DNA of 64,000 bases from an uncultured Oscillospiraceae bacterium. Lineage in GTDB: Bacteria > Bacillota > Clostridia > UMGS1883. A program made the position numbers and the translations under genes. The stretch spans positions 77,896-141,895 of the forward strand of contig CAYLPQ010000001.1 in the NCBI GenBank assembly GCA_964385605.1, given 5' to 3'. The notes under the pieces were generated by a model. That model was given only the letters and a program-made list of their open reading frames with translations, searched no databases and was not told the origin of the DNA. This document shows, piece by piece, positions 3,166 through 54,397 of this stretch; position 1 is the stretch's first letter, and every line of letters starts with the position of its first letter.

Positions 3166-3184
3166 CTGCCTCATTCCCCCATTC

Positions 3185-4744
3185 TTATTTACCCAGATAT
3201 CTGTCATATGCCTGCTGCTCAATCTTAATATATTCATCAGCTCCGAGTGAATTCATTTCACTTATGAAAAGCTCATAGCTCAAATCAATATCTGTGTTTC
3301 CGAGTACCCATTTCTGCATCATTTCGCTAAGATGAGTTTCTACCTGTCCTTTATACTTGCTTACAAGTTCCTGCTCTTCTATTGTGTAGACTAACTGTAC
3401 CTTATCTTCAGGAAGGTAATCATTGTCAAGGTACATCTGCATACCTTCTTTTGCAAGGGGGTGTGCAAGGTCCATCTCAAACTGTGCAAGATTCATAACA
3501 CCCCAGTTCATCGCTGTACGATACTGGTTACGCAAGTTCATTGGTGCGGGGTCGGTTGATGCCAGGAATTCCTCTGTGAATTTAGGCTCGCCGTCAACCA
3601 TATTGTATGTAATACCTTCAACGCCGTAGTTAGCTGCAATCTTACCTTCTCTTGACCACCAGTAGTCAAAGTACTTAATTGCTTCAACTGTGTGCTTACA
3701 GTTTGCCGTAATAGCCCAACCTTCGCTGCTTATCTTATTTCTGTAAGTGTATTCAGCTCTTTCGCCGTTTACATTTTCAGGCGGTGCAAACGGAGCAAAG
3801 CGGAAACCTTCAATGTTAGCACCTAAAGTATCATTAAATGCAGCGGTACTTGTGAACCATTCATGTGTAATACCACCCAGGTTATTGCCGAGGAAATACT
3901 CTCTCTGTGACTTTCTGGTAAATATTTCCGGATCAATCAAGCCTTCTTTATACCATTTAGCTACAGTCTTTATCATTTCTTTAAACTGAGGCTCAAAAGG
4001 ACCGTATGAAACCTTGTCGCCATCATAACGGAATGAAGTATAAGCATCAAAAAGACCGCCGAAGTCATTCATTACACTTATAACATTTGACTTCGCTGTG
4101 AAATAGGGAACTTCATCCTGAATACCGTTTCCATTGGGGTCCTGTGTTTTGATTGCTACCATTGTATTGTAGAATTCTTCAAGATTATTAGGAGCTTCCA
4201 ATCCTAACTTATCAAGCCAGTCTGCTCTTATAAACCAGCCGTTTGCAGTCTGAAGCTCATTAACGAAGGGAATCCAGTAAATATTACCATCGGGAGCTGT
4301 TACATAACTTTCTACATCAGGATTCTCATCAAAATACTTCTTAATATTAGGAGCATGCTCTTCAATCAAATCATTAAGCGGAATAAGAGCACCTGACATA
4401 CCATACTCAATAAATGCATCGCGCTTATATGTATATATAATATCTGTAAGCTTTTTTGAAACTACAGCAAGCGCAAGTGCCTGGTCAAAATCTGTATTAT
4501 TTTCGCCCAGTTCAAATTTAAGATTTACATTTGTTCTGTCAAAAGCTTCTGTAAAGATGTTTTCCTCCTGCTTGGGTCCTCTGTACAGGATAGAAAGCTC
4601 TATCGGCTCATCTGTTATCTTATGTGTTAAGCTTCTTTCTGCGTTATCTGGCAAATTTGCTGTTTTTTTGTCGCCGGAGCATCCGGTAAGCAGCAGCATA
4701 AGTGCCAGAATTAACACAATTCCTCTTTTCAAATTTTTTCTCAT
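3185..4744 (-). CDS. lplA: extracellular solute-binding lipoprotein of a carbohydrate ABC transporter (large LplA/YtcQ-type SBP, 519 aa)
   Basis: The N-terminus MRKNLKRGIVLILALMLLLTGCSG is a lipoprotein signal peptide with an LTGC lipobox. At about 520 aa it matches family-1 SBPs of the LplA type. It sits immediately downstream of two LplB/LplC-type permease genes. The symbol is given by analogy to B. subtilis lplABC and is not based on a sequence search. Confidence 0.75.
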   Translation of the reverse strand: MRKNLKRGIVLILALMLLLTGCSGDKKTANLPDNAERSLTHKITDEPIELSILYRGPKQEENIFTEAFDRTNVNLKFELGENNTDFDQALALAVVSKKLTDIIYTYKRDAFIEYGMSGALIPLNDLIEEHAPNIKKYFDENPDVESYVTAPDGNIYWIPFVNELQTANGWFIRADWLDKLGLEAPNNLEEFYNTMVAIKTQDPNGNGIQDEVPYFTAKSNVISVMNDFGGLFDAYTSFRYDGDKVSYGPFEPQFKEMIKTVAKWYKEGLIDPEIFTRKSQREYFLGNNLGGITHEWFTSTAAFNDTLGANIEGFRFAPFAPPENVNGERAEYTYRNKISSEGWAITANCKHTVEAIKYFDYWWSREGKIAANYGVEGITYNMVDGEPKFTEEFLASTDPAPMNLRNQYRTAMNWGVMNLAQFEMDLAHPLAKEGMQMYLDNDYLPEDKVQLVYTIEEQELVSKYKGQVETHLSEMMQKWVLGNTDIDLSYELFISEMNSLGADEYIKIEQQAYDRYLGK

Positions 4745-4792: not shown

Positions 4793-5674
4793 TTAACCTT
4801 TTACTGCACCGAGCATTATACCGTCCTTAAAATACTTCTGAATGAAAGGATAAATCAAAAGCATCGGTACAATTGATACCACAATTGTCGAATACACCAG
4901 CATATCTGAAGAATACTCAATAATTGTATCTGATTGTCCCTGTGGACCTGCAACTGTATTGGCACCAAATGTTGTGTCAATAATTATTTTCTTCAACACA
5001 ACCTGCAAGGGCTGTAAGTCATCCTGCCTTAACAGTATCATCGGCCATATGTAGCTGTTCCAGCAACCAATCAAAGACATAAGTGCAATAGTAGCAATAC
5101 ATGGCTTTGAAAGCGGAATGTATATACGGGTTAATACCTGCCAACTGTTTGCACCATCTAAAAATGCTGACTCTTCCATAGAATCAGGGATTGACTGAAA
5201 GTAAGTTCTCGTCAGGAGAACAAAGTAAGCCGGAACAGAAGATATTATAAGAGCCAGTCTTGTATCTAAAAGTCCCAAATCTACATAGTTCAAATATGCA
5301 GGAATCAATCCACCACCAAACCAAAGAGGTATTGAAACCAAAATATTAAACAGTTTTCTTCCTCTGAAACGTGGCTTTGAGAGAGGATATGAACCCAGGA
5401 TTACAAAGCTAACTGTAAACAATGTTCCAAAAAAAGCAATGAAAATTGAGTTACCGTAACCGGTCCAGATCATCTTTTCCTTCAAAACTTCTCTGTAAGC
5501 GCCAAGATTTAATCCCTTGGGCAGCAATATAACCTCACCGCGCATAACTGCATCCACATCACTCAACGATGCTGACAATACATAGACGAGAGGATACAGA
5601 CAGGCTAAAGAGAACAATAACAGTATGGTTCCGTTTATAAAATAAAATATTTTTTCACCTTTTGTTGCTTTCAT
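4793..5674 (-). CDS. lplC: carbohydrate ABC transporter permease (LplC/YtcP-like, ~293 aa)
   Basis: The protein is multi-pass hydrophobic with a binding-protein-dependent inner-membrane component layout. The track start MVGGEN lacks an RBS. The internal ATG (MKATKGEK) at 5672-5674 is preceded by GGGGGTGAG and avoids overlap with the upstream gene. Confidence 0.75.
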   Translation of the reverse strand: MKATKGEKIFYFINGTILLLFSLACLYPLVYVLSASLSDVDAVMRGEVILLPKGLNLGAYREVLKEKMIWTGYGNSIFIAFFGTLFTVSFVILGSYPLSKPRFRGRKLFNILVSIPLWFGGGLIPAYLNYVDLGLLDTRLALIISSVPAYFVLLTRTYFQSIPDSMEESAFLDGANSWQVLTRIYIPLSKPCIATIALMSLIGCWNSYIWPMILLRQDDLQPLQVVLKKIIIDTTFGANTVAGPQGQSDTIIEYSSDMLVYSTIVVSIVPMLLIYPFIQKYFKDGIMLGAVKG

Positions 5675-5685
5675 ATTCTCACCCC

Positions 5686-6642
5686 CTACCAAAGAGAAGT
5701 TTCTGTTACTCGCTTACTGATAATATTCGTTGCAAGAACAAAAACAAGTGCTACAAGTGAATTAAACAAGCCTACGGCTGTTGCAAAGTCATACTTACCT
5801 TCAGACATACCTAAACGGTACATATATGTAGATATAACGTCTGCAGTCTCGTACGTAACAGGCTGATATAACAAAATAATTTTTTCGTAACCGACAGAAA
5901 ACATACCGCCGACACTCAAAATAAGTTTTATTACTATTGTGGGCAATATACCCGGAAGAGTTATGTGAATTATCTGCCTGAACTTATTACCGCCATCAAT
6001 TACACAGGCTTCGTAAAGCGACGGGTCAATTCCCGACAGAGCTGAAAGATATATAATCGAGCTGTATCCGCAAGTTGTCCATATTCCGGTGGTAATATAT
6101 ATACTTCTGAACCATTCAGGCTTTGTCATGAAATATATGCGTTCTCCGCCCAAGGCTTCAATTAAATTATTGATTACTCCGCTGGGTGCAAGTAAATTTA
6201 CTGTAATACCACAGATAACAACCATAGATATAAAGTGAGGCAAGAAGGTTGCAGTCTGGAAAAAGCTCTTTAACTTTTTCGTTCTGACCTCATTGAGCAA
6301 TATTGCCAGAAGAATAGGAGCAGGGAAAGAAAATATCAAATTATAAATACCCAGTAAAAAAGTATTTTTCAATGTGCGTCCGAAATATGCTCCTGAAACA
6401 AATGTCTTGAAATGCTCAAGACCAACCCATTCACTGCCCCATATACCCTGATATGCATTGAAATCTTTAAAGGCAATGATAATACCATACATTGGTTTAT
6501 AGGTAAAAATCAGCAAGTGTAGTAAGAATGGAATAAACATTATGTACAAGGATAAGTCTTTCTTCACATCTGCCACAAAACGTCCCCTTTTAAACCCTGA
6601 TGAAGGGTGTACTTTTCTTTTAATTTTGCTAATCAAGTTCAA
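5686..6642 (-). CDS. lplB: carbohydrate ABC transporter permease (LplB-like, 318 aa, with the N-terminal extension typical of LplB)
   Basis: This is a polytopic membrane protein of MalF/LplB-like size and layout. It is the first gene downstream of a strong promoter. Its start appears to be TTG (TTG AAC TTG ATT = MNLI) following AAGGTTGG. Confidence 0.7.
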   Translation of the reverse strand: MNLISKIKRKVHPSSGFKRGRFVADVKKDLSLYIMFIPFLLHLLIFTYKPMYGIIIAFKDFNAYQGIWGSEWVGLEHFKTFVSGAYFGRTLKNTFLLGIYNLIFSFPAPILLAILLNEVRTKKLKSFFQTATFLPHFISMVVICGITVNLLAPSGVINNLIEALGGERIYFMTKPEWFRSIYITTGIWTTCGYSSIIYLSALSGIDPSLYEACVIDGGNKFRQIIHITLPGILPTIVIKLILSVGGMFSVGYEKIILLYQPVTYETADVISTYMYRLGMSEGKYDFATAVGLFNSLVALVFVLATNIISKRVTETSLW

Positions 6643-6768: not shown

Positions 6769-9700
6769 CTATTCTTTTGTATTTATCGGCAATGCTTCTG
6801 TGAGAGGAGCAAGTTTTTCTTCAGAATCCCATACATATAACTTCGCAGAAAATTCATTTCCTTCAGGTATCTCACAAAACGCACTCATTCCATCATAAGT
6901 GTTATCTTTCGCGGGATGAATGCTGTAAAGTTCTTTCCCTTTATATACAACAATAAAAGGAAACAGATTTTTTGTCCTGACTTCCGCGCGAATATTTTTA
7001 TCGGTTTTATAAATTATCTCTGTAAAGTCATCGCACTTCCATTCATCCAATTGTACATTTTCAGAAGGCATAATATCATCTCCCATAGGGGAAAGCTTTG
7101 CCTGGATATACATATTTCCGTTTTCAGAACAATCAGCTACAACAGCAAGCTTTTTATATTTGCTATTGTCAGATTGACCTGCTGTTTGCGGAGATGTAGC
7201 AAGCGGTTCAGCTGACATTACTGTTAGTTCAAAGTTTGGGGCATCAGTAAGCAATTCAAATTTAATACTCTTTCCGCTTTTTGTTAAAATAGCAGTTTTA
7301 GCATCTTCCTGAATTTCAATCACCGTATCTGCCATTGTATGCATAAACCAATAGACCTTACCGGCACTTTTAATACCTTCTATTTCATCACGTATAATCA
7401 TACTGTTGCGATTATCATCAGTTTTAAAGCCGCGACGCACACTCGATGCATAATTGACGTATGCGTCAGTCATATTAAGGATACTGTAGCCCCCATATTC
7501 ATTTGTTTCAAATTTTTCAATCGGTGAAAATGCCGATGTATTATGTCCCGGCGACTCGTCAGGGTTTATAACCAAACAATTATGCCCCTCCGGTCTTGTT
7601 CTATATGTATCGAGCAGGCTACCTGCAAACGAATAGCTCTCCGATGGAAGATCTACCGCAAAACGAACACCATCATATTCATATACAAAGGTCCCCGTAT
7701 CGCAATGTCCGTGTCCGGGATAGGCATAACCTCCGTGATAAGATAAGAACATTCCGTTTGAGTCAAGCCATTCTTCTCGGAAAGAGCCGACTGCATCTCT
7801 TTGTATTGCAGCATCTTTTGGCAACTTTATATCATCCAGAACCTTTGCGTAAGAGGCCGGAAAATTAATGAGTGTTGTTATTCCATAATAAACCTTATGA
7901 TGCCAATCATATGTAAGTTTCCAGTCTGCCCATAAGGGCTCATTATACAAAGCTGCCAAGCCATAAAAGCTACCCATACTATATACCGAAAGATTCTGTT
8001 CAGAATCATGATAATTATTATTTTGTTGTATGCTTGCCGCATACATTATGTATTCGGGAGATTTTTCAAGTCCGGGCGAGTGAATCATACCGAAATCTTT
8101 TCCATAGGAAATTTTAATGCTCGAAACAGCCGGTACCCAATATTGCATCGAATATGTCCAATACGTCGTACCTTCAAGCCATGCGCCATCGGGATAGAAG
8201 CTATTCTGAAATTTTTCAACTGAACGAATTGCTTTTTCCAAAACAAAGCCCGCTTCCTCAGGATATTTATCCATGATTGCAAGGGCACATAAAATATATC
8301 CCCCGTTGATAACTGCATTCTGATTACTGTTTTTCGAATTTATCCACCACGAACTGTTACCGCCGATTTGTCCTCCGTAATTTTTCACAGCATAAACAAG
8401 GGCTTTTTTATAAAGAGCCTCCTCCATAGCCTTTTTCTGGGTATCATTCCACTCTTCATAAAGCCAGTCGTATGCATATGCCACAGCTGTTGCCATCTCT
8501 GCATTATCCAAGCCACTGTTAGGCTGCCAATGAGGAAAATCATCATCGTTTATAACTGCTTCAACATTTTCCCATATTCTATCCTTGACATTTTCTTTAA
8601 TTTCGTATTCATTTGCATCCGAAGCACTACTATCTTCCATTAAATGATACCATAGCGCAAGGTTTTTCACTCTTGAAAGCAATGTTCTTGCTTTCATCAT
8701 AACATTTTGTTTATTTGATGCATCGTTCAGCAACTTACCGGAATATTCATCATCTATACGCGTCTTACCTATTTCAAAATACCATTTAGCATATTCATAA
8801 GCATTTATCTCTTGTTTTATTTCGTCAATACGACCTTCCGGAATTGACAATCTGGGATGGTCCTTTTTTATATTATCAATCAAATATTCTGACGATGGCC
8901 TTTCATACATCAATTCATTGTGTAAAGTCCATTTCAAGCTGTCCGAAAGCTCGGCAACTCCCCCATCGTCACTCCAATAAATAAATCCGCGGTCGTCGTA
9001 TAAGGCCTTTTTGCCAAACTCTGCCAATGCAGCATCATACAATAAATACCCACCTATATTGATTTCAGTATTAAAAAGTTCCTCCAGTTTTTTACATGAA
9101 ATCAAAATTCTGCCATTTGAATACTTTACAATTTCAGCATCGTTTCCCTTTTTTCCGTTGATAATATAATCTCCGTAAATTGATATTGCAGACACACCTT
9201 CAGACTTATTATTGTCTGCATTAACTATTGACTTATACTCAAGATCATAGACAGTGTTATCAAAAACAGGCTCTCCGCTATAAAACACAAAATTATCAAA
9301 GCAATACGTGCCAGCAGTATATGATTTTTCTGAATGAAATCTTATACGCCATAAATCTATTATTACCGTTTCACGTGTTTCAATTTGTATATCGTTTGCA
9401 TAAACCGTAATATACGGTTTATCAACACTAAAATCGCAAACTACTCTTATTGTTGTCCACTCGTTTGCATTCAGTATGTTTTCTATACCGCAAACCTTGT
9501 CGTTAACAAGCCACACACTATGCGTATTGGTTCCGGTGCTGTCAGTCAGCATAAGTCCAATCTTTGTTGCAGTTTCTTTAGGCATCACATCAAACTGAAC
9601 AACCATTTTTTTTTCATTTATGGCCTCTGACAATATTTTTTCTATATTTGAGTTTCCCTCACCTGTCCCATACTCATAGTCAGGAGAATACTTTTCGAAA

Positions 9701-9963
9701 AATATATAGCGGTTACCACTTGTATCAACTTCTGTTCCTATATTGTTTCCGTTTTCACGCACTGTAATATTGTCAAATGGAGAATATTTGCCATAATAGC
9801 TATCATCAAAATTTTTTACAAAGTACAGCTCGCCACTCTCTTTGGTCACCTTTTCAGCAAAAGAAACTACTGGACATACAGACAGCAAAAACAAGCACAA
9901 CGTCCATAAGGCAACTACTTTTTTCATAAGCCTAGTTCTCCTTATCATTTTCTTTTTTATCAT
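6769..9963 (-). CDS. secreted heparinase II/III-like (polysaccharide-lyase-like) protein, 1064 aa
   Basis: A signal peptide lies within MIKKKMIRRTRLMKKVVALWTLCLFLLSVCPVVSFA. The C-terminal region has GHGHCDTGTF and RPEGHNCLVINPD, the hallmarks of the Hepar_II_III fold seen in PL12/PL15/PL17/PL21-like enzymes. It is a paralog of the partial ORF 1..3165. Confidence 0.6.
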   Translation of the reverse strand: MIKKKMIRRTRLMKKVVALWTLCLFLLSVCPVVSFAEKVTKESGELYFVKNFDDSYYGKYSPFDNITVRENGNNIGTEVDTSGNRYIFFEKYSPDYEYGTGEGNSNIEKILSEAINEKKMVVQFDVMPKETATKIGLMLTDSTGTNTHSVWLVNDKVCGIENILNANEWTTIRVVCDFSVDKPYITVYANDIQIETRETVIIDLWRIRFHSEKSYTAGTYCFDNFVFYSGEPVFDNTVYDLEYKSIVNADNNKSEGVSAISIYGDYIINGKKGNDAEIVKYSNGRILISCKKLEELFNTEINIGGYLLYDAALAEFGKKALYDDRGFIYWSDDGGVAELSDSLKWTLHNELMYERPSSEYLIDNIKKDHPRLSIPEGRIDEIKQEINAYEYAKWYFEIGKTRIDDEYSGKLLNDASNKQNVMMKARTLLSRVKNLALWYHLMEDSSASDANEYEIKENVKDRIWENVEAVINDDDFPHWQPNSGLDNAEMATAVAYAYDWLYEEWNDTQKKAMEEALYKKALVYAVKNYGGQIGGNSSWWINSKNSNQNAVINGGYILCALAIMDKYPEEAGFVLEKAIRSVEKFQNSFYPDGAWLEGTTYWTYSMQYWVPAVSSIKISYGKDFGMIHSPGLEKSPEYIMYAASIQQNNNYHDSEQNLSVYSMGSFYGLAALYNEPLWADWKLTYDWHHKVYYGITTLINFPASYAKVLDDIKLPKDAAIQRDAVGSFREEWLDSNGMFLSYHGGYAYPGHGHCDTGTFVYEYDGVRFAVDLPSESYSFAGSLLDTYRTRPEGHNCLVINPDESPGHNTSAFSPIEKFETNEYGGYSILNMTDAYVNYASSVRRGFKTDDNRNSMIIRDEIEGIKSAGKVYWFMHTMADTVIEIQEDAKTAILTKSGKSIKFELLTDAPNFELTVMSAEPLATSPQTAGQSDNSKYKKLAVVADCSENGNMYIQAKLSPMGDDIMPSENVQLDEWKCDDFTEIIYKTDKNIRAEVRTKNLFPFIVVYKGKELYSIHPAKDNTYDGMSAFCEIPEGNEFSAKLYVWDSEEKLAPLTEALPINTKE

Positions 9964-12121
9964 CGACTATGCATTTAGACCGGTACTCATTTGGCGAAAT
10001 ACCTGTTTTTTTCTTGAATACACGCACAAAACTTGTAGTGTTTAAATATCCTACACTCTCGCCAATTTCCTTGATTTTAATCATACTTTTATCTTTTAAA
10101 AGACTTTTTGCTTTTTTAATCCTGAGCTCCAGCACATAATCGATAAAAGTTTGTCCTGTCATTTTTTTATAGAGTTTGCTTACATACCCCACCGAAATAT
10201 TAAAACGTGCTGCTATATTTACAACAGACATTTCTTCCGTATTTGAAAAATTATCCATAACATAGTCGTTTATTTCATTGAAAAGGACATTTTGATTGTC
10301 AGTGTTCTTTGCAACTATAGCATTAAACACATTGTTGTAAAATGCATATAAAAAAACCTTAAGCTTTTCCTGATCGCGGCTGAAAGCAATTTTTTCTCGT
10401 ATATTTTCTCCATTTGCAAGTTCCGCCTCTGTTAAGCCAAAAGTCTCTACAATACGTTTTGCCGTCATCATAAGAGCAAATTTAAACTCAACGATTTCTT
10501 CAGAAGATATTTCTCTTTTGTCCGCATTGACATCCAATACATGAGAAAGAAGATTATAAAAACCTTCCTGATTACCTTCTCGAACAAATGAAACAAGACT
10601 GTCTTCAACTTCTATAGGATAATAATATCTGTCATATTTCTTTTTCTCGCCGCCATAATGATATACTGTATTCTCTATTGAGGCCATATGAATATCGCTG
10701 ATCTCGATTATTTCAGTATATAATCCGTACATGTCAGAGAGTTCAGCAATTCTATGGTCAAGCATTATCGCTTTAATCCTTATATTTAATTTTTGTTCAG
10801 CAGAAGTCAAATTTTTAAGGATAATCGTTTCTGCTTCATTATTTTTACTTTTCGGATACAAAAACACAGTCTTACCCAAGCTGAGTTCAAAGCTTTCTGC
10901 TGCAAGCTCATCTGCAATTTTTTCTAACAAGTCTTCGTAGGGTTTATTATTAATCACCGCTATATCAGAAGAGTCAAACATTAACACACCACATACGGCA
11001 CAATAAAAATCATCAGTTATCCTTAAGGAAAATAATTCTTTTTTATTTTCAATCTCACTTTTGCCAATTTTCCCCATGAAAATATCCTTTAAAAAGTTAC
11101 CCTTAAGCATTTTTTCATGTTCTTCCTGGTGTTTTTTTAATTCGTTATTCTTCTCTATCAAGCTCTCAAATGTGGATTCCATTACTCCAAATTCATCATA
11201 TTCGTCACTCTGCTCAAAGTATTTTTTCAAAAAAGTTCCAAATGGCTTATATATCTTTATTGCTATATATTTTGACAACCACAAAGTCAGCACAAAAAAG
11301 CATAAAAGAATTATTGCAAACTGCACAGAAAAATAAAAAGGAACTTTAAACTCGTCAGTTGCAATACCGTACTTCCATTCAGGAATAACAATTGAGCTTT
11401 TCCATATAGCTTGCTTTTTGTCGCTTGCTGAAAGTGAATCATATTTAAACAGATTACTCTCTTTTTCGTTTATATAAAATCCATTGAGCGATTCATTTTC
11501 CATATTTTCCGTCATTACAGTTTTATTTAACACGACCAGAAAACAGAGATTATTTTCTACGTAAACAGACTTTTTAACAAAAAATATTATGTAAGAGCTT
11601 TCATCCATACCTGTATATTTATCAGAAAGCCTGATAAAGGTATTTTCATCAAATCCTGCTAATGAGTCATGTTCGTAGGGGATATTCCCAAGTTTATCAT
11701 TAATATCATCGAGATGTTCAATTCCACTTTCCGAAATAAAACAATCATATTCCGGCTTGTACATAATCACCTCTATGCCCGAAATGCCTTTATGAGGCAT
11801 TGTATCGCTTATATATTTATATAATTGAATCTTATCATATTGGTTCACACTTTCTTTTCCGGCAAACTTTCTTACAGATGATTCCAAAGGTAGCACATCA
11901 ACATATTCAAACGCACTACGCAGTTCCTGATCTAATATATTTGCATGATTGTTTAATGTTATATATTCATTTTCTGTCTGTTTCTGCCGGTGAAGCTTTA
12001 TTTGTTGATATTCAAACAAGGATACAATTATCAAGCTAAAGCAAATCATTACAGTAAATATTAAAAGCCGAACATTTCTAAAATATTTATTTTTATTGTG
12101 CAAAATCATCCCTCGCTTCAA
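9932..12121 (-). CDS. membrane-anchored AraC-family transcriptional regulator (729 aa; N-terminal TM, large sensor region, C-terminal HTH_AraC)
   Basis: The C-terminus VSKLYKKMTGQTFIDYVLELRIKKAKSLLKDKSMIKIKEIGESVGYLNTTSFVRVFKKKTGISPNEYR is a double HTH AraC signature. Hydrophobic segments lie near the N-terminus (LLIFTVMICFSLIIVSLF) and near residue 270 (AIILLCFFVLTLWL). No receiver domain is present. Confidence 0.8.
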   Translation of the reverse strand: MKRGMILHNKNKYFRNVRLLIFTVMICFSLIIVSLFEYQQIKLHRQKQTENEYITLNNHANILDQELRSAFEYVDVLPLESSVRKFAGKESVNQYDKIQLYKYISDTMPHKGISGIEVIMYKPEYDCFISESGIEHLDDINDKLGNIPYEHDSLAGFDENTFIRLSDKYTGMDESSYIIFFVKKSVYVENNLCFLVVLNKTVMTENMENESLNGFYINEKESNLFKYDSLSASDKKQAIWKSSIVIPEWKYGIATDEFKVPFYFSVQFAIILLCFFVLTLWLSKYIAIKIYKPFGTFLKKYFEQSDEYDEFGVMESTFESLIEKNNELKKHQEEHEKMLKGNFLKDIFMGKIGKSEIENKKELFSLRITDDFYCAVCGVLMFDSSDIAVINNKPYEDLLEKIADELAAESFELSLGKTVFLYPKSKNNEAETIILKNLTSAEQKLNIRIKAIMLDHRIAELSDMYGLYTEIIEISDIHMASIENTVYHYGGEKKKYDRYYYPIEVEDSLVSFVREGNQEGFYNLLSHVLDVNADKREISSEEIVEFKFALMMTAKRIVETFGLTEAELANGENIREKIAFSRDQEKLKVFLYAFYNNVFNAIVAKNTDNQNVLFNEINDYVMDNFSNTEEMSVVNIAARFNISVGYVSKLYKKMTGQTFIDYVLELRIKKAKSLLKDKSMIKIKEIGESVGYLNTTSFVRVFKKKTGISPNEYRSKCIVDDKKENDKEN

Positions 12122-12244: not shown

Positions 12245-14326
12245 TCACATAACGTTCTTTCTGTAACAGCTGAGCTCATATTCAATTACATAGTCAATGT
12301 GCTTAATTTTCCAACGTATGCGCTCCTCATCCCCCATATATTCCATAGACGGCTCCCAACCCAGGCGGGAGTCTTTTCTTACAAACTCAATTGCTTTTTC
12401 TGCGTTTTCCTTTTCGCGCAAAAGGAGTTTCTCCATTTGGTCAGCAAGCATTAAAATACTTTCAGCATTATTCTCGGATTTAATCTTTGCGGAGAACTTA
12501 TACCAGTATTTTGCATTTATTCCTGTAGTAACATAACAGCAAATGTATTCTCCCATATTCACAAGATAACACAGTTCTTCGTTTTTCTCCGAAATACCCT
12601 GAAGGATATCCGTTCCTTGCCGCATTAACTCGTACATTTTTTCCAGAGATTTTATCTCTGTATCAACCCGCATAAAGGGAAGCATTCCTCTTCCTGTTGG
12701 AAGTCCGTTTGTAGGATGATAGTCAGCCGGATACATTGTAAACATAATACGATTTCCGAAATGTGCATAACTCTCACCTTTTGGCTTCATTTCGCGAATT
12801 AAGCAGAAAGGATATGCCGGGCCGATTCTGAATGCTCCGTACTGGTCTGCATCGCTGGGTATATAATGAGTGATTGCATCACTCCATAATTTAAGTGCCT
12901 GACAGATTCTTTCAGCATTTTCCTCTCCGTATCGGGCAGAAATAACATCATTCAAGCATTTTTCACTATCGGTGTTTTCTTTAATGAAGCACTGTTTAGC
13001 AAGGTCCCCGATAAATGAAGGCCAAAAACCAAAATGATGAGATTCCATAACACCGCACAAACCCCATTTTTCGTTAGCCTCACGAAGACCCTTGTATCTT
13101 TTCATCCACTGATAAGGCATCGGCTCATAGGGCACAACACCCATATCCCATGTAGTACCACCGGTATTTGCCATTGTATACATACGGATACCACGTTTTT
13201 TTGCTGCTTCAGCCTCCGACTTAAAGTATTCGCCAGGGCCATGCAACGACAAGGTATAATCTGCTGTAAATTCAGTAATATCGTCTATTTTATAGCTCTC
13301 AAACATTTCAAAGGTTGCCATAAGGGTAATATCTGTCGGAAGGGAGTTTATAAGCTTCAGACGGTTTTCCTTATCAACATATCCCCAGTTATAGGTCCAG
13401 AAAACAATATCTGCATCCTTTTTCTGATTTCTTACCGCCTTTTTCACACATTCGAGCCACTGGGGATAATCATAACACGGCCACCAACCGGCAGACGGTT
13501 TTCCTGTGGGGAATCCATCCTTGTCAACCTTTTCCCTTGTTGGAGTAACATTAGGATCTTTGCTTGGAAATCCCACCGACTCCCCGACAAGTATAACACC
13601 TTTAAGGGAAGGACAATTTTTAAACAGTGTCCCGTAAAGGTTATCATAAAATTCCTGTGCATCTTCTTCCTCGGGATGCTTTTCGCTTTTTAAATAGCTG
13701 TAGGCATATACATCTATTCCGTAACGCGACGCACGATAAATGAGCTCGTTAAAATCAACGAACCCCGTGCTCGTCATATTAACACCTTTGACAAAAATCA
13801 GTATTGCATCCATTCCTGCGTGTGCAATAGATGCAAGATGTTCATTGGGGAAATTGTCTATTCCATAGCCTGAATGCACCATTCTGGGAGAGAACAGGTA
13901 CGTGTGTCTTATTTCCTCTTTTTTAAGAATTGGTGCTTTTTTCACATTCATTCTGTCCTCAAGACAGTAAAAAGCCTGTGCCACTCCTCTGTCATTTTTT
14001 CCGGAAATGGAAATACTGTCACCAATCTTTATTATGTAGTCTTCAGACTGATTTTCGTCAACAGAGCATAAAATGGCATTATCTGAAATTTTCTCATCCG
14101 AAATCATTGCAGATATTTTCATTGAGGTAAAAAGATAGCCTGTAAAATCTTTTGCCCCTGTAATTATAACCTCTGTACAATTTTCAGGCACAATGATATT
14201 TAGTCCGTTCTTCAGTTCAAGCTCGTTCTCGTCAGGAAGAATGTCAAAATTTCTGACATTCTTCCTGTGGATATTTAGTAGCCTTTTCCTAAACTCATAT
14301 TTTTGTTCATTCTTAAGCATATACAC
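12245..14326 (-). CDS. uncharacterised cytoplasmic 693-aa protein, putative glycoside hydrolase or phosphorylase (paralog of 21012..23129)
   Basis: There is no signal peptide. It shares long blocks with ORF 21012..23129: FSPRMVHSGYGID-FP, GMDAIL-F-KG-NMT, GV-LVGESV-FPS-DPN, GWWPC-DYP-WL, DIVFWTYNWG, GLCG-MESHH-GF-PSFI and YGAFRIGPAYPFC. I could not assign a family from memory. Confidence 0.5.
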   Translation of the reverse strand: MYMLKNEQKYEFRKRLLNIHRKNVRNFDILPDENELELKNGLNIIVPENCTEVIITGAKDFTGYLFTSMKISAMISDEKISDNAILCSVDENQSEDYIIKIGDSISISGKNDRGVAQAFYCLEDRMNVKKAPILKKEEIRHTYLFSPRMVHSGYGIDNFPNEHLASIAHAGMDAILIFVKGVNMTSTGFVDFNELIYRASRYGIDVYAYSYLKSEKHPEEEDAQEFYDNLYGTLFKNCPSLKGVILVGESVGFPSKDPNVTPTREKVDKDGFPTGKPSAGWWPCYDYPQWLECVKKAVRNQKKDADIVFWTYNWGYVDKENRLKLINSLPTDITLMATFEMFESYKIDDITEFTADYTLSLHGPGEYFKSEAEAAKKRGIRMYTMANTGGTTWDMGVVPYEPMPYQWMKRYKGLREANEKWGLCGVMESHHFGFWPSFIGDLAKQCFIKENTDSEKCLNDVISARYGEENAERICQALKLWSDAITHYIPSDADQYGAFRIGPAYPFCLIREMKPKGESYAHFGNRIMFTMYPADYHPTNGLPTGRGMLPFMRVDTEIKSLEKMYELMRQGTDILQGISEKNEELCYLVNMGEYICCYVTTGINAKYWYKFSAKIKSENNAESILMLADQMEKLLLREKENAEKAIEFVRKDSRLGWEPSMEYMGDEERIRWKIKHIDYVIEYELSCYRKNVM

Positions 14327-15499: not shown

Positions 15500-15535
15500 A
15501 ATTTTACTCCTTATTTATTAACATATATATTAATT

Positions 15536-16234: not shown

Positions 16235-16273
16235 AAAAAATCGTCTCCTTTTTTTAAATCGATTTATTATATT

Positions 16274-16996: not shown

Positions 16997-17023
16997 TGTT
17001 AATCATCCTTTCTGTATACATCT

Positions 17024-18737: not shown

Positions 18738-20129
18738 CTATATACTATACATTGACAAATATTTCTTTGTGTTCTGTATCATTTCGTCAAATAACTTCCG
18801 TGCACTTTCCACATCAAGAGTTACAAGGGGATCGTTTACAAATGCATTGAATACACCCTCAATATCCCTGTTAGTAATTGCGGCATGAACTGCTTCCTGC
18901 TCTGCACATATTCTGGAAACAAGAGGATATATACTTTCAGGAATCCCGCCTGACATTACAGGCATAACACTGTCTGAACGGAAAACGGCATTTGTTTCAA
19001 CAACTGCTCCCATGGGAAGATTGGGAATCTGCCCTGTGTTTGGAATGTTTACATTTGTAACAAGGTCGCACAGTCCCACAAGAGCCCTTATTTGATTTAT
19101 ACCTTCCTCACCCGTTTTGTCAATTTTTACAGTTTCTTCACCGCTTCTTAATCTCTCGCTTCGTGCAATACGTTCCTTAAGCTCTTCTTTTCTGCTGTCA
19201 ACAGTTGTAAGAGCAAACCCCCATTTTTCTACAGTTTCCGGGTCTTTAAGGTACCATTTCCCTTCACAGAATTCCGCAAGATGTCTGTCGCCTGCGGCGG
19301 CAATGTAACCGTAGCGTTTAAAAAGGTCTATCTTTACCTTTTCCATACATTTAAGGTTTTTATTTGCCCAATTATCGTGAAGAGTTTCAGCATAGCCACA
19401 GTCAGAATATTTTTCGGCAAACTTACTGTACACCGGAAATAAATCCATATTCTTGTATTTTGCGGAAGTAATCCAGGTAAAGTGATTCACCGCAACGGGT
19501 GTAACCTTTATATCTTCTCTTTTTACATCCTTGATTCCGCAGATTTCTTCAAGCGCGGTCATAAGAACTTTCTGTGTGCCGAAAACCTCGTGACAGCATC
19601 CGAAAGCTTTGATTTCAGGGAAGGTTTTATAAAGAGTTTTTACACACAGTGTCATTGGGTTTGTGTAACTTATAACCCATGCATTCGGACAATATTCTTT
19701 TATATAATTTGCTATTTCTTCATACATAGGAACTGTACGCATCGCACGCACTATGCCTCCCGGGCCTGATGTATCTCCGACAGATTGATAAATTCCGTAT
19801 TTTTCAGGAGTATGTACATCAGAATACATTTCATCAAATGTTCCGGGCAAAATTGAAATTATAACAAAATCTGCATCAGTCATAGCCTCTTTTGCGGTTT
19901 TTACAGCATGGTAATTCCATACAGTATTTGCACCTTCGGCATTGTTAAATTTATTTCCTATAATTTCATTTGCAATTGCTGCATCATAATCGATATCATA
20001 AAGAAACACATCGCCGCTGATATCACTGCAGCTAGCAAGGTCACTCATAAGCCCCCAAGCCCAGCCACGGCTTCCGCCGCCGACATAAGCGATTTTTATA
20101 TCTCGCACACAATCTTTTTCAAATTTCAT
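18738..20129 (-). CDS. lplD: family 4 glycoside hydrolase (NAD+/Mn2+-dependent; LplD alpha-galacturonidase/alpha-glucosidase-like)
   Basis: The N-terminal IKIAYVGGGSRGWAWGLMSDLA Rossmann motif and a length of 463 aa are typical of GH4. The gene lies in the same region as the lplABC-like transporter. The symbol is by analogy only. Confidence 0.7.
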   Translation of the reverse strand: MKFEKDCVRDIKIAYVGGGSRGWAWGLMSDLASCSDISGDVFLYDIDYDAAIANEIIGNKFNNAEGANTVWNYHAVKTAKEAMTDADFVIISILPGTFDEMYSDVHTPEKYGIYQSVGDTSGPGGIVRAMRTVPMYEEIANYIKEYCPNAWVISYTNPMTLCVKTLYKTFPEIKAFGCCHEVFGTQKVLMTALEEICGIKDVKREDIKVTPVAVNHFTWITSAKYKNMDLFPVYSKFAEKYSDCGYAETLHDNWANKNLKCMEKVKIDLFKRYGYIAAAGDRHLAEFCEGKWYLKDPETVEKWGFALTTVDSRKEELKERIARSERLRSGEETVKIDKTGEEGINQIRALVGLCDLVTNVNIPNTGQIPNLPMGAVVETNAVFRSDSVMPVMSGGIPESIYPLVSRICAEQEAVHAAITNRDIEGVFNAFVNDPLVTLDVESARKLFDEMIQNTKKYLSMYSI

Positions 20130-20143: not shown

Positions 20144-21025
20144 CTATTTAATTTCCCAGCCATTTTCACTATTTAAAAGACGCATTATAACAGGACGTTC
20201 ATCCTGCACAGGCTCGTTGGGCTTGTGCATAATAAAATACTCATTACCGCAAATATCCTCAAATATCATTCCGTGTCCGCCATTTTTATCCGAAACAGGA
20301 TTTTGAAGAACTTGCCAGTTTCCGTCTATATCCCCATTGTCGCTTTTTGCGATAAGCTCTGCATATCCGCTCCGGGTAAAGCTGGACCACAGGCAATATA
20401 ACTCACCATCTGTATTTCGTTTTAAAAACGGTCCGTCAGTAACAAAAGCAATCTCGTTTTCTCTTACGGTTTTTACACCTTTAAAATCAGATGCTTTCCA
20501 CAGTGTTTTGGGGACAGAAACGACTTCAGTCAAATCTGCCGAAAGCTGCACTTCACAGATTTCTCCGTCACCTGTCTGCAACCATTCATGACAAAAAACA
20601 ATGTGAGGGGCACCCTTTTTGTCAATATACAGAGTCCCATCAAGACATTCCCAATCGCGAGGAGTTACCGGGCAGTCTGATACCGGCACAAAATTGCCGT
20701 CAGGTGTATCAGAAACAAGAATATGCGTACCACGGCACTCTTTTTCTGACTTAAACGTGGCGAACATATAAAATTTTCCGTTGTAAAAATACACTTCCGG
20801 CGCCCAGAAATCCATGGTTCCCCAGAAACCATCTTGTTTCTCAAAAACGGATTTTGGTTCGTTCCAGTTTTTCAGGTCCTTGCTTACATAAACATCAAAC
20901 CCGGTTTGTTCACCCCATGGTTTTTCTTTTGTCGGCATGCCTACTCTTGAACCGTACATATAATATTTATTTTCCCACAACAAAATAAAAGGATCTCTTA
21001 TATTTATTTTTTCAAGTTTCATCAT
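20144..21025 (-). CDS. GH43-family glycoside hydrolase (beta-xylosidase/arabinofuranosidase-like five-bladed propeller)
   Basis: The N-terminal IRDPFILLWENKYYMYGS has the catalytic Asp motif. Internal WAPE and FYMFAT blocks are also present. The protein is cytoplasmic. Confidence 0.7.
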   Translation of the reverse strand: MMKLEKINIRDPFILLWENKYYMYGSRVGMPTKEKPWGEQTGFDVYVSKDLKNWNEPKSVFEKQDGFWGTMDFWAPEVYFYNGKFYMFATFKSEKECRGTHILVSDTPDGNFVPVSDCPVTPRDWECLDGTLYIDKKGAPHIVFCHEWLQTGDGEICEVQLSADLTEVVSVPKTLWKASDFKGVKTVRENEIAFVTDGPFLKRNTDGELYCLWSSFTRSGYAELIAKSDNGDIDGNWQVLQNPVSDKNGGHGMIFEDICGNEYFIMHKPNEPVQDERPVIMRLLNSENGWEIK

Positions 21026-23129
21026 AAACCTCTTTTGTAAGATTATGCTTTATTCCTTCTTTCAGTGCATTTATCTCGAAGTTCAGCAGATACTCCATCT
21101 GACGTATTTTCCATTTAATATGCTCCTCGTCTCCCAGATATTCCATCGATGGCTCCCATCCTAACCGTGAGTTTTTCTGAACAAGAGGAATGGCAGATTT
21201 TGCATTATCAATTTCAAGCAAGGCAATTTTCTCAAGTTCTTTAATGTACTTATTAATTACATTCGGATCATCCGAAGAATAGAGCCTTGTTCGCGCAACT
21301 GTATAGGTCTTTACATTTATTACACTACGGACAGTACACGCAATGAATTTTCCCAATTCAATAAGCTCCTCTAGTTCATCATTACATAACTCTATGCTTT
21401 CAAGAATATTAATTCCTTTCAGCAAATGATGCTCTAACACCTCAAAGGATTTTATTTCACGGTGTATTCTTATAGGAGAAACACTGATTTGGGTATTGCT
21501 GTCAAAGAAAGGATAATATGCTGAAGTTAAAATGCCTGTACCAAAATGTGCGTAATCAGCCTGCGGCGGTTTTATTTCACGATGCATACAGAACGGATAT
21601 GCCGGACCTATTCTGAATGCTCCGTATTGATCATCACACACTGCTATATAATGAGTAATTGCCTCACTCCATTCAAGCATTGCTTCATTAACTTTTTCAA
21701 CATTTTCTTCTCCGTATAAATTGCCAAGAAGTTCCTTTAAAATATTCTTTCTCGGCTTATCTGAAATTGTAAAACTCCATTTTGCAAACTCACTGATAAA
21801 TGATGGGTAAAATCCGTAATGATGTGACTCCATTAATCCGCATAAGCCGTATTCTTCTCTGCATTCAAGCAGTGCATCATATCTTTTTTGCCATTGATAT
21901 GGGAACGGCTCGTAGGGGATTACACCAAAATCCCATGTAAGACCTGCCGTATTTGCCATAGCATAAAGTCGAATGCCGTTCTCCTTTGCTGCTTTTGCCT
22001 CTGACAAGAAGCACTTTCCCGGTCCTGTTAACGACAATGTGTAATCCGACACATTTTCCATAACTCCGTTTTTTTCATAAATCTCACTCTTTTCAAAGGT
22101 TGCAAGAAGAGAAATATCCTCTGGCAAAGATTCTATGAGCTTTATGCGATCTATTTCGGGTGCGCCTCCCCAGTTATAGGTCCAGAATACAATGTCCGCC
22201 TCACTATTGTATTTTCTGATGACCTTTTTCAATAGATTCAACCAATCCGGGTAATCACAGCAAGGCCACCAGCCGGGATGCGTTTTTAAGTTTGGAATTC
22301 CGTCAGGACTTTTTCTTGAAATGCTTCCTGTAGTATTCGGGTCGTGACTTGGAAACGCAACTGATTCACCTACTAAAACAACACCCTTCAAGCCGGGACA
22401 TTCACGGAAAAGCTTACCGTAACTCCCATCATAATAATCATATGCCCCTTCATCATCCGGATGCATTTCACTTTTTAAATAGCTGTACGCATAAACGTCT
22501 ATGCCGTATTTAGCCGCTCTGCAAACTAACTCATTAAAGTCAAGAAACCCGTATGTTGTCATATTAGAGCCTTTTGTAAAAACCAAAATGGCATCCATCC
22601 CTGCGTGAGCAATATCACGCAAGTGACAATCTGGGAATTGGTCAATTCCATAGCCGGAATGGACCATTCTTGGAGAAAATGCAGCTTTACATTCTATAGT
22701 TTCTTTTTTAAGGAAAGGCGCTTTACGCAGTGTCATCATATCCTCCATACGGTACAATGCCTGTGCAACACCTCTTTCATCATGGGCTAAAACTTTTATG
22801 CTTTCTTCCACGGACAAACGGTATCCCATATAACCGTTACCTGTAGTCAATTGCTGTTCTTTATCAAAATCTATGCTGATAACTTTTTTGCCGGTTTCTT
22901 TTTTGCGCGCTATCATAACAGACACATTCATCGAAATGAGCATATACTCCTGAAAATCTTTTGCAGCCGTAAGAACGACATCACTGTCTGTTTGCGAGAT
23001 GTCAATTACAAACCCGTCTGTGATTACAAGTTCATCCTCACCGGGCATTATAGATACATTAACTATATCTTTTTTATGAATTTGCATCATTCTCTTTCTG
23101 AATTCATAATTTTTTTCGAGTTTTCTCAT
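21012..23129 (-). CDS. uncharacterised cytoplasmic 705-aa protein, putative glycoside hydrolase or phosphorylase (paralog of 12245..14326)
   Basis: It shares the same conserved blocks as ORF 12245..14326, for example GWWPCCDYPDWL, DIVFWTYNWG and GLCGLMESHHYGFYPSFI. There is no signal peptide. Confidence 0.5.
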   Translation of the reverse strand: MRKLEKNYEFRKRMMQIHKKDIVNVSIMPGEDELVITDGFVIDISQTDSDVVLTAAKDFQEYMLISMNVSVMIARKKETGKKVISIDFDKEQQLTTGNGYMGYRLSVEESIKVLAHDERGVAQALYRMEDMMTLRKAPFLKKETIECKAAFSPRMVHSGYGIDQFPDCHLRDIAHAGMDAILVFTKGSNMTTYGFLDFNELVCRAAKYGIDVYAYSYLKSEMHPDDEGAYDYYDGSYGKLFRECPGLKGVVLVGESVAFPSHDPNTTGSISRKSPDGIPNLKTHPGWWPCCDYPDWLNLLKKVIRKYNSEADIVFWTYNWGGAPEIDRIKLIESLPEDISLLATFEKSEIYEKNGVMENVSDYTLSLTGPGKCFLSEAKAAKENGIRLYAMANTAGLTWDFGVIPYEPFPYQWQKRYDALLECREEYGLCGLMESHHYGFYPSFISEFAKWSFTISDKPRKNILKELLGNLYGEENVEKVNEAMLEWSEAITHYIAVCDDQYGAFRIGPAYPFCMHREIKPPQADYAHFGTGILTSAYYPFFDSNTQISVSPIRIHREIKSFEVLEHHLLKGINILESIELCNDELEELIELGKFIACTVRSVINVKTYTVARTRLYSSDDPNVINKYIKELEKIALLEIDNAKSAIPLVQKNSRLGWEPSMEYLGDEEHIKWKIRQMEYLLNFEINALKEGIKHNLTKEVYDET

Positions 23130-23185: not shown

Positions 23186-25279
23186 TTAATTTTCATTAAG
23201 CATATTCATTACTTCAACTCCGGCACTTAATACAACACCTACACCGTGATCGTCATTTTCTATGGTATCAAGCTGCATATAATACTTTTCTTCCATATTA
23301 CAGCCTGAACCCATACATATTCCGTATACATTGCCTTTTTCGTCAATGCAGTTTCTGCATAATGATTTCCACGCATCATTTATTTCTTCTTTATATTCAG
23401 AAGATATCCAGCCGTTTACAATCCCTCTTGCAAGTGCTGTAATAAACATTGCACTGCCACTTGTTTCAATGTAGCTATCGGGGTTATCTATCACCTGGTG
23501 CCATATGCCTTTTTCTTTGTCACGGTATTTAAGAACACCCCGGGCAAACTTCTGAAAAACTGAAAGTATTTCTTCCCGCCCGTGATAATCTTCCGGCAAA
23601 AGCAGGAGCACCTCGGAAAGAGCAAGCAAAACCCATCCATTTCCTCTGCCCCATGGTACACGGTTAGCTTTATCTTCTTCCACGAAGAATATATGGGAAA
23701 ACAAATCCTTATCCTCCATATAAAGCCGCTTGTAAAACCCTCTTATCTGGATAAGAATATCATCAAAATAACATTCATTACCGCTTATCGCACCAAGACG
23801 AGCCATAAACGGAAGACACATATACATATCATCTGTCCACATAGTTTTTATGCGGTAAAATGTTCCGTCGGAGAATCTTGGTATTTTGTACGTAAGAACA
23901 TCACCAAGGATATTAAACAGATTCTCTGCATTGGAATCATTGGACATCATATAATATTCCGCAACATTTGTACCAATCGTTCCTATTGCGTCAAGACTTT
24001 TTATTCTTCCTCCGGTTGCAAGATATGATGCATATCCCGAACGTTCATTATCAACCGCACCATAATCACGGTGCAGGCAAAGAAGTTTCATACTTTCCGA
24101 AAAATATTGGTCAAAATCCTTTTTGCCAAGCTTCTGCGCGGCTTGCTTCATACCATAGAGTCCCACCATAATCGCATAAAACCATTTTCCGTAAAATGCA
24201 CTGTGAAGATATTGCCGAAGGTAAGTATTTTCCCTGTAAAAATTCCAGTACACACTTCCTCCCCAGGCCGTAGCATAAGGCTTAATAAATCCAAGTTCTG
24301 TTTCCGGTCCGTAGGGATAATCTACATTCTCTCCTTTTCTTCCGAAAGGACCTATCCATATCCACTGCAAATCAGGACAGTCAGCTCCGTCTATAAATGG
24401 AAGGCTGTGCTCGCCGGAAGTTTCAGCCGTAAAGCCCCACACATCTTCCTGGCGTGTGCTTTTTATCAAAAGCGGTGTATCACAGTTAAAGTTCTCTTCA
24501 AAAGCTCCGTTTTCAGAGTTATATATAATCTTATCCCCTGAAAAAACTTTAAGAGGATTTTTATGTTCAATTTTGATTTTTCCTTTTACACAGGTATAGG
24601 CATAAGCTGTGTAACCGTTTTTACACAATTTGGTAAAATCAAAAGTTTTTATATTGCTTTGAGGTGGTAAAACCGGATATACCCATTCAATTTCTTTAAT
24701 ATTCGGTTCTTTCTCTCCATTTTTATAAAGGCGGGAAAACTCAAGCAATTCCTGAAGCCTGTACCCCCTTTTTTTTACGTACTGCCAGGTGCAGTAAGCA
24801 TAGTCTCCGCCCGTTCCATATCTTAATTTGGGAACAAGAGGGAAAACATATACCGAAAAGTTTTCTTTCTCTGCAACTGCTTTTACAACTAGACGGTTCT
24901 CGCCTTTTTTGAAAGTTACGTATGTATCAAGAGTGTTATTGGGGCCGGTAGAAAGTATCTTTTCCTTTCCGTTAAAATACACCTTCGCTTCTGCACAACC
25001 TCTTATATTTATGAGTATTTCCCTTTCGTGGAGTCCTTCAAGGTAAGTTGATATATAAGCATAATCACCCTTATTATAACCGGGATAAACTTTTCCAAAA
25101 TCAACACCGGGTTTGTTTGACATATCAACATATTCATCATTTCGATACGGTCTGTATGATACCTTTGATTTCGGTCTGTATTTCAATGCATTCTCAAAAA
25201 TCTGATTGACAATTTCTCTGTTAGTTTTATGTTTTTCATTTATTGAATGTTCAACATATGTTCCCATAAATATCACCAT
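23186..25279 (-). CDS. GH88/GH105-like unsaturated uronyl hydrolase domain with a ~330-aa N-terminal extension
   Basis: The C-terminal half contains ANRVPWGRGNGWVLLALSEVLLLL, the GH88/GH105 (alpha/alpha)6 signature. It is a paralog of ORF 58510..60669. The track start is TTG; the ATG at 25277-25279 or the next ATG (MGTYVEH) is more likely. Confidence 0.65.
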   Translation of the reverse strand: MVIFMGTYVEHSINEKHKTNREIVNQIFENALKYRPKSKVSYRPYRNDEYVDMSNKPGVDFGKVYPGYNKGDYAYISTYLEGLHEREILINIRGCAEAKVYFNGKEKILSTGPNNTLDTYVTFKKGENRLVVKAVAEKENFSVYVFPLVPKLRYGTGGDYAYCTWQYVKKRGYRLQELLEFSRLYKNGEKEPNIKEIEWVYPVLPPQSNIKTFDFTKLCKNGYTAYAYTCVKGKIKIEHKNPLKVFSGDKIIYNSENGAFEENFNCDTPLLIKSTRQEDVWGFTAETSGEHSLPFIDGADCPDLQWIWIGPFGRKGENVDYPYGPETELGFIKPYATAWGGSVYWNFYRENTYLRQYLHSAFYGKWFYAIMVGLYGMKQAAQKLGKKDFDQYFSESMKLLCLHRDYGAVDNERSGYASYLATGGRIKSLDAIGTIGTNVAEYYMMSNDSNAENLFNILGDVLTYKIPRFSDGTFYRIKTMWTDDMYMCLPFMARLGAISGNECYFDDILIQIRGFYKRLYMEDKDLFSHIFFVEEDKANRVPWGRGNGWVLLALSEVLLLLPEDYHGREEILSVFQKFARGVLKYRDKEKGIWHQVIDNPDSYIETSGSAMFITALARGIVNGWISSEYKEEINDAWKSLCRNCIDEKGNVYGICMGSGCNMEEKYYMQLDTIENDDHGVGVVLSAGVEVMNMLNEN

Positions 25280-25352
25280 AGACAAGAATACAACACATTT
25301 TTCTTTATTTCCTTAAATTTGTTGTTCAAATAGAATAAAACAAGAAAATATT

Positions 25353-32964: not shown

Positions 32965-32980
32965 ACTTAATCCTCCTGAC

Positions 32981-54390: not shown

Positions 54391-54397
54391 ACCTCCT

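Follow-up and report, generated by a model that had tools for sequence, protein, structure and literature searches.

The 64,000-nucleotide stretch of DNA analysed here (hereafter the window) comes from an uncultured Oscillospiraceae bacterium (Bacillota, Clostridia, UMGS1883 in GTDB; assembly GCA_964385605.1, contig CAYLPQ010000001.1, positions 77,896 to 141,895 of the forward strand). It carries two genes, A and B, that an original prediction made from the letters alone had singled out as paralogs of ~700 aa without an assignable glycoside hydrolase (GH) family. Both open reading frames (ORFs) are present where they had been placed, on the minus strand: paralog A at 12245..14320 (691 aa), a cytoplasmic member of an unannotated three-domain GH-like family, and paralog B at 21012..23129 (705 aa), with the same three-domain layout, stop codons included in both cases. 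The full ORF of A covers 12245..14326 and starts at a GTG (14326), but the ATG at 14320 is the more likely start, as it lines up with the N-terminus of B and is preceded by a GAGG ~9 nt upstream. An antisense ORF of 219 aa also lies within gene A (13034-13693, plus strand), in all likelihood a spurious shadow ORF that reflects the conserved coding frame.

A and B are clearly paralogous. BLASTP aligns them over their full length with 347 identities in 699 positions (50%, 68% positives, E = 0), and their Smith-Waterman score is 1841, against 42.5 ± 5.9 for 100 shuffles of B. All six conserved motif blocks initially quoted are found in both proteins at equivalent positions. The description of these blocks as rich in Cys, His and Trp holds locally, while the overall content of these residues is ordinary (~2% each). 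B-type orthologs from elsewhere are closer to B (~57% identity) than to A (~46%), and the duplication is therefore old, A and B representing different, anciently diverged subclades by this comparison. Neither protein has a transmembrane segment or a signal peptide-like N-terminus, and the proposed cytoplasmic location is thus reasonable for both.

We found no match to A in Pfam-A (models to 2025) or NCBIfam 20.0 (June 2026). For B, these libraries give only a 21-residue, sub-threshold match to GH65N (E 0.01), which was discarded as chance. Searches of PDB chain sequences (2026 copy), either by phmmer with A and B or by hmmsearch with a profile of 46 family sequences, returned nothing meaningful, a tblastn search of plasmids gave no match, and a full-text literature search aimed at a characterised family member found none. 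The lack of an assignable GH family holds for Pfam-A, NCBIfam and PDB sequences, with single sequences as well as profiles.

The family is nonetheless large. A search of 5.8 billion proteins recovered 2,535 relatives, nearly all of ~700 aa and without a Pfam domain, and every name given to them in public sources is "hypothetical protein". An exhaustive profile search yielded 1,707 clusters at 50% identity, and relatives occur in at least 573 stretches in a scan of species-representative genomes. Carriers are mostly uncultured gut and rumen Clostridia (Oscillospiraceae, Lachnospiraceae, Faecousia, Acetatifactor, Christensenellales, Caldicoprobacterales and Monoglobales), joined by cultured Paenibacillus and Cohnella and by one Lentisphaerae and one planctomycete metagenome-assembled genome. 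Several genomes have two or three family copies, at times in tandem; multiple or tandem paralogs per genome are typical of families of carbohydrate-active enzymes (CAZymes). About one fifth of the full-length representatives have a signal peptide directly before a conserved N-terminal YxFRxxLxxVH motif, and the family therefore has both secreted and cytoplasmic members.

AlphaFold2 models built from family alignments (A: pLDDT 91.6, pTM 0.91; B: pLDDT 93.3, pTM 0.93) show three domains in both paralogs, namely an N-terminal α/β domain, a (β/α)8 barrel and a C-terminal helical bundle. In A, the GH20b-like N-domain comprises residues 1-140 (13901..14320, minus strand, as are all segments of A given below). 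The barrel, defined by DSSP secondary structure and by its matches to GH barrels, spans residues 141-450 (12971..13900) and is the putative catalytic domain; its strands lie at 146-149 (β1), 172-177 (β2), 203-208 (β3), 241-245 (β4), 304-308 (β5), 332-336 (β6), 379-383 (β7) and 421-428 (β8). The C-domain (residues 451-691; 12248..12970) includes the near-invariant R498, E636, N639, E656 and K671 and the motif DSRLGWEPSMEY. The corresponding limits in B are ~1-148, ~149-458 and ~459-705.

At the sequence level the N-domain alone is recognisable. The Pfam model Glyco_hydro_20b (PF02838) weakly matches it in 19 of 38 divergent members (E <= 10, best E 1e-6), always below or near the gathering threshold, and one database relative has a precomputed PF02838 match. 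This "zincin-like" fold is typical of the N-domains of GH20, GH67, GH84, GH89 and GH115. The barrel has no Pfam match in any of the same 38 members, and neither single-sequence nor profile searches of Pfam, NCBIfam and PDB sequences returned anything for the barrel or the C-domain.

In a Foldseek search of the PDB with A, GH138 (BT0997 orthologs; E 5.5e-17, TM-score 0.54), GH67, GH20C, GH115 and GH84 are the top-ranked families, all at 9-12% identity. Some 480-520 residues align with the three-domain structures of GH67, GH138 and GH115, and the nearest full-length structural relatives are all hydrolases. GH127 and GH112, which had been considered and set aside, were rightly so, as neither is among the structural matches listed for A or B. 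Clear similarity to a characterised family such as GH42 or GH35, which would have turned the pair into an ordinary annotation, was likewise not found, the resemblance being a remote one of fold at 8-14% identity.

The layout of A and B, with an α/β domain, a (β/α)8 barrel and a helical C-domain, is that of the GH67 α-glucuronidases (e.g. Geobacillus stearothermophilus AguA, PDB 1k9d). GH67 enzymes are inverting α-(4-O-methyl)glucuronidases in which a Glu serves as general acid and two carboxylates as bases. However, neither A nor B matches Pfam Glyco_hydro_67N, 67M or 67C at E <= 0.1, nor do any of the 38 members at E <= 10, and the family profile finds no GH67 sequence in the PDB at E <= 10. 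For GH138, BT0997/BPa0997 (PDB 6hze, 6hzg) acts on chain A of rhamnogalacturonan II (RG-II). The structural alignment of A with GH138 has 10-11% identity, and phmmer and profile hmmsearch against PDB sequences including 6hze and 6hzg give no match at E <= 10. The GH115 α-glucuronidases (PDB 4zmh, 7pxq, 5by3) are 8-12% identical to the family and differ in having one or two extra C-terminal domains, in a four- or five-domain layout; the family has neither this layout nor a match to Pfam Glyco_hydro_115. GH67 and GH115 are both inverting (PMC13059095), and GH138 is an RG-II α-galacturonidase (PMC13501991). The pair that marks clan GH-A (GH5, GH53, GH42 and others), Asn-Glu at the end of β4 and a Glu nucleophile at the end of β7, is absent. 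DUF4838 (PF16126) and GHL6 (PF14871), which occur as partners of the family, are not its relatives (hhalign probability below 1%, no Pfam match).

Conservation was assessed in the alignment of the 38 divergent members, which reaches down to 25% identity. Eighteen polar or aromatic residues of the barrel loops are at least 85% conserved, and all are located on the β→α (C-terminal) face, with none on the opposite face: H149, S150, D155, H215, E247, S253, D255, C282, D284, Y310, N311, D354, Y355, T390, W391, D392, Y398 and H428. Five carboxylates (E247, D255, D284, D354 and D392) reach at least 95% conservation apiece. The active site probably lies on this C-terminal face. The motif GVILVGESVGFPSKDPN (residues 241-257; 13550..13600) forms strand β4, followed by E247 (36 of 38 members) and D255 (37 of 38). 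The position directly after β4 is the general acid in most TIM-barrel glycosidases, and E247 is the probable general acid from its placement in the alignment and in the model. The motif SPRMVHSGYGID (residues 144-155; 13856..13891) forms β1, with R146 and H149, and is set by hhalign against the β1 motif of GH20C-type proteins; GWWPCYDYPQWL (residues 278-289; 13454..13489) closes the long β4-α4 loop and contains the conserved C282 and D284; and GLCGVMESHHFGFWPSFI (residues 420-437; 13010..13063) forms β8, with E426 (84%, plus 11% Asp) and H428 (89%).

Strand β7 ends in Asn/Thr and lacks a carboxylate, and the partner of E247 is therefore probably D392 (β7-α7 loop), D354 (β6-α6 loop) or E426 (β8), acting as base or nucleophile. 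E247, D354 and D392 would then be candidate counterparts of the GH67 carboxylates, and D255, D284, H149, H215, Y310, N311, W391 and H428 would bind sugar. Of the conserved acidic, His and Cys positions suggested to form a catalytic or metal site, the acidic residues and C282 (87%) are kept, but in the GLCG.MESHH block conservation falls to 29% at C422, which is thus variable, and to a moderate 79% at H429, and a Cys/His metal site is therefore not supported by conservation.

In the window, paralog B is embedded in a compact group of minus-strand CAZyme genes. A GH88/GH105-type protein of 699 aa (23186..25285) with a C-terminal PF07470 domain is encoded 56 bp upstream of B. The start of a GH43 gene (20144..21025) overlaps the stop of B by 14 nt and is followed downstream by a GH4 gene (18738..20129). 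The 699-aa gene is probably co-transcribed with B, GH43 and GH4. Paralog A is followed at 123 bp by a gene for an AraC-family regulator of 729 aa with two transmembrane-like segments (9932..12121, minus), confirming that one of the paralogs sits beside a membrane AraC. Beyond it on the same strand are genes for a secreted heparinase II/III-like protein of 1064 aa (6769..9963) and for an ABC sugar importer, with two permeases (4793..6642) and a solute-binding protein (3185..4744). The order A, AraC, heparinase-like is repeated on an independent contig. The claim that both paralogs flank the GH4 and GH43 genes holds only in a loose sense, as B directly adjoins GH43 and then GH4, and A lies 4.4 kb beyond GH4, past M20, alpha/beta-hydrolase, GDPD and PHP genes. 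In all, the window holds two GH88/105-type proteins, a weak PcRGLX-like match and a protein with weak RGL11_C and FG-GAP matches. NCBIfam offered no more specific names for the neighbouring CAZymes of the window, and promoter and terminator scans performed no better than on shuffled sequence.

Several further features of the window surround this core. The PHP, GDPD, alpha/beta-hydrolase and M20 genes between A and GH4 (14639-18367) are not what one would usually find in a glycan-degradation cluster; a 12/12 match to a sigma-70-like consensus (18489-18461) precedes the block, in a promoter scan that is overall no better than shuffled. Two cytoplasmic proteins of ~700 aa (23186-25285 and 58510-60669) have the GH88/GH105-type domain in their C-terminal half alone (residues ~370-700), the N-terminal ~360 residues being without a Pfam match. 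AraC-type regulators with transmembrane-like segments accompany these regions: one (56910-58397) adjoins 58510-60669, and the one at 9932-12121 is ~11 kb from 23186-25285. The start of the window cuts through another heparinase II/III-like ORF (1-3237, minus), a homologue of the one at 6769-9963. At 60916-63689, genes for an AP_endonuc_2 protein (xylose-isomerase-like TIM barrel) and a GFO/IDH/MocA oxidoreductase enclose an MBL-fold gene, and a second GFO/IDH/MocA gene (40848-42745) adjoins genes for a PIG-L deacetylase and an M20 peptidase. AP_endonuc_2 and GFO/IDH/MocA genes are typical of oxidative (3-keto), non-hydrolytic routes of glycoside cleavage.

At the cell surface, a 1231-aa protein (48019-51714) combines DUF7402, F5/8 type C, FG-GAP and dockerin domains with weak RGL11_C and lambda-carrageenase beta-propeller matches. 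Its dockerin is worth mentioning as the neighbouring surface proteins are SLH-anchored. A cell-surface cassette consists of an fn3 protein of ~520-550 aa, a ~960-aa protein without a Pfam match (34799-37699 in the window) and two SLH proteins of ~600-850 and ~890-930 aa. In three other genomes (loci L047, L059 and L064) this cassette follows immediately downstream of a tandem of family genes (>Amidohydro2 >FAM >FAM >c27 >c22 >SLH >SLH891, where FAM is the family gene). In the window it is represented at 30175-39274 and 51715-56947; its parts lie 7-16 kb from B, and the SLH pair is present twice.

Across the family, domain fusions connect members to GH78-type six-hairpin domains (twice), GH106 (E 5e-190), GH2 plus GH28, a CE15-like esterase, tandem GDSL esterases, GH16-like domains (twice) and DUF4838 (twice). 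Among relatives of A, one with 65% identity (P0009) has a GH106 gene 13 bp downstream, followed by a DUF4886 gene, and two others (P0005, 74%; P0022, 60%) have GH78-type genes within 7-9 kb. A further member (P0028) is flanked by GH3, by GDSL and other esterases, and by a fucosidase-like gene.

Neighbours were tallied over the 80 closest genome loci, 66 of which were informative, as raw counts rather than enrichments. GFO/IDH/MocA oxidoreductases are the commonest (21 of 80 loci), GHL6 adjoins a family gene in six loci, and GH20C-type genes recur in several, sharing one CAZyme-rich operon with GH88-like genes. One recurrent order is AraC< >M24 >ASRT >creatininase >FAM, and a conserved operon of M24 (creatinase/prolidase-like), ASRT, creatininase-family and family genes was seen in several Clostridia (L021, L022, L036, L042, L027 and L043). 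The order in Paenibacillus and Cohnella is >GHL6 >FAM >LacI >ASRT >deacetylase (polysaccharide) >M24 (L074, L080 and L081). Proteins of the ASRT family are predicted to act inside the cell as sugar sensors for sugar-metabolism operons (PMC2739507). In six loci (L019, L020, L024, L030, L012 and L014), a 452-aa protein without a Pfam match (cluster c9) is found beside an aminoglycoside-3-N-acetyltransferase-family gene, a NagA-like amidohydrolase gene and the family gene.

Taken together, these data make it likely that A and B are paralogs from a large uncharacterised three-domain family of GH type and function as cytoplasmic exo-glycosidases that trim imported oligosaccharides. Their hydrolase activity, their catalytic residues and their exo-acting role are what we infer from fold, conservation and gene context. 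Outside the cell, oligosaccharides would be released by enzymes that are secreted or SLH-anchored, among them the heparinase II/III-like lyase; the adjacent ABC transporter would import them, and A and B would then trim them in the cytoplasm, beside the GH88/105-type, GH43 and GH4 enzymes and under AraC-type control. As for the substrate, we tentatively propose an α-uronidase-like, uronic-acid-releasing activity on rhamnose- and uronic-acid-containing glycans, such as oligosaccharides of the rhamnogalacturonan I (RG-I), RG-II or gum type, because of the structural kinship with GH67, GH115 and GH138 and of the fusions to rhamnosidase, GH28 and esterase modules. This is a possibility rather than an expectation, and different subclades probably have different specificities.

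A number of observations weigh against this reading. The order of the nearest structural families differs between the paralogs, GH138 ranking second for A and eleventh for B, which puts the α-uronidase reading on weak ground. Rhamnosidase and GH28 homologues, sought by phmmer with the fusion-partner domains, are rare in the 80 closest loci, and the pectin reading can therefore not be generalised to the whole family. By contrast, a gene for an N-acyl- or amine-modifying protein (NagA-like Amidohydro_1, creatininase-family, Amidohydro_2, PIG-L, Polysacc_deac_1, Antibiotic_NAT or M24) lies at most three genes away on the same strand in 31 of the 66 informative loci, and in 14 of 26 subgroups defined at 60% identity. 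The original guess of a pectin or RG-I substrate is thus backed by domain fusions and some neighbourhoods, but competes with this equally frequent association. Concerning the active site, mean conservation is not different between the two barrel faces (Mann-Whitney p = 0.83), the one-sidedness being limited to highly conserved polar residues, and the end of β7 without a carboxylate leaves the family without the classical clan GH-A pair. Finally, hhalign relates the family profile to its GH20C-type neighbours with a probability of 38% (E 3e-4), a weak result that covers the N-domain and β1 (SPRMVHSGYG against the GH20 β1 strand) without resolving β4.

The N-acyl/amine association speaks for the main rival, a hexosamine-directed glycosidase that would act on linkages of N-acetylhexosamine or hexosamine, for example as a GH89-like alpha-N-acetylglucosaminidase, with neighbouring deacetylases or N-acetyltransferases preparing its substrate or processing its product. 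Consistent with it are the GH20b-like N-domain, a feature shared with GH20 and GH84 albeit through a weak match, the presence of GH20, GH84 and GH89 among the structural matches (470-480 residues aligned with GH89), the GH20C-type neighbours in several loci, and the PIG-L, M20 and Amidohydro_2 genes, heparinase-like lyase and GH88-type genes of the window. However, the D-E (GH20) or D-D (GH84) pair that follows β4 and defines the substrate-assisted hexosaminidases is absent, being replaced by G246-E247-S248, of which G and E are at least 95% conserved. Moreover, no member is significant against the GH20, GH84 or NAGLU (GH89) catalytic models of Pfam, sequence similarity to GH89 was not found, and the neighbour association consists of counts without a baseline frequency. 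We regard this rival as rather unlikely.

We give a similarly low probability to the possibility that the family is already a classified CAZy family that happens to lack a Pfam or NCBIfam model and a solved structure, in which case it would be an annotation gap with nothing new. New GH families arise often and can precede Pfam models; CAZy counted 194 of them on 13 March 2026 (PMC13059095). Against this stand the recent release dates of the two libraries that returned no match, the lack of a sequence relative in the 2026 PDB copy even with a profile, the uniform naming of relatives as "hypothetical protein", and the failure to find a characterised member in the full-text literature.

A non-hydrolytic role, as a phosphorylase, a transglycosylase, a lyase or a non-catalytic sugar-binding or regulatory protein on the same scaffold, appears improbable in view of the structural relatives, the N-domain of GH20b type and the modules to which members are fused. 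TIM-barrel folds of GH type do include phosphorylases and transglycosylases, the missing β7 carboxylate leaves the chemistry open, and co-occurrence with GFO/IDH/MocA and AP_endonuc_2 proteins is frequent. On the other side, the five near-invariant carboxylates, together with several His, Tyr and Trp on the catalytic face, count against a non-catalytic function, the nearest full-length structural relatives are hydrolases throughout, and the fusion partners are hydrolases and esterases. Least probable, on the same three grounds, is a metal-dependent amidase or esterase that would bind metal through His, Cys, Asp and Glu and remove acyl or peptide groups from glycans: H149, H215, H428, C282 and several Asp/Glu are indeed conserved on the barrel face, and amidohydrolases, peptidases and esterases are frequent neighbours, but the N-domain is a glycosidase hallmark, C422 and H429 are not well kept, and there is less need for a further amidase where the operon already has an amidase gene of its own.

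Returning to the exo-glycosidase reading, the A/B family is a credible candidate for a new family of carbohydrate-degrading enzymes, new with respect to Pfam, NCBIfam, PDB and the literature, the CAZy lists not being part of this comparison. A paralogous pair with catalytic-looking conserved blocks and no assignable GH family bears out the initial proposal of a candidate for an undescribed CAZyme family. It is a new sequence family inside a well-known structural and mechanistic class, and as such a sound basis for enzyme discovery without conceptual surprise. Whether it forms a new GH family within the GH67/GH115/GH138/GH89/GH20 structural class that is abundant in gut Clostridia, performs there a step for which no enzyme is known in these bacteria, and uses a catalytic apparatus unlike those of clan GH-A and of the D-E hexosaminidases, is in our judgement an evenly balanced question. 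One such step could be to free uronic acid from rhamnose-linked oligosaccharides in the cytoplasm, in partnership with GH78 and GH106 rhamnosidases during the breakdown of RG-type glycans. Other subclades could perform a NAGLU-like cleavage coupled to the neighbouring N-acetyltransferase or deacetylase genes, for which the lysosomal HGSNAT-NAGLU pair offers a parallel.

If this holds true, a large GH family would be added to those known, with ~1,700 clusters at 50% identity, a presence in at least 573 species genomes and often several copies per genome, whose members are now invisible to the annotation of gut and rumen Clostridia, where all are labelled "hypothetical protein". The family is experimentally tractable through cultured carriers such as Paenibacillus agaridevorans T-3040 and several Cohnella species. 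Once activities are assigned, CAZyme-based prediction from metagenomes would improve, new exo-enzymes might become available for the structural analysis of pectins, gums or glycosaminoglycans, and models of the final, intracellular degradation of complex acidic or aminated glycans by Gram-positive gut bacteria would have fewer gaps.

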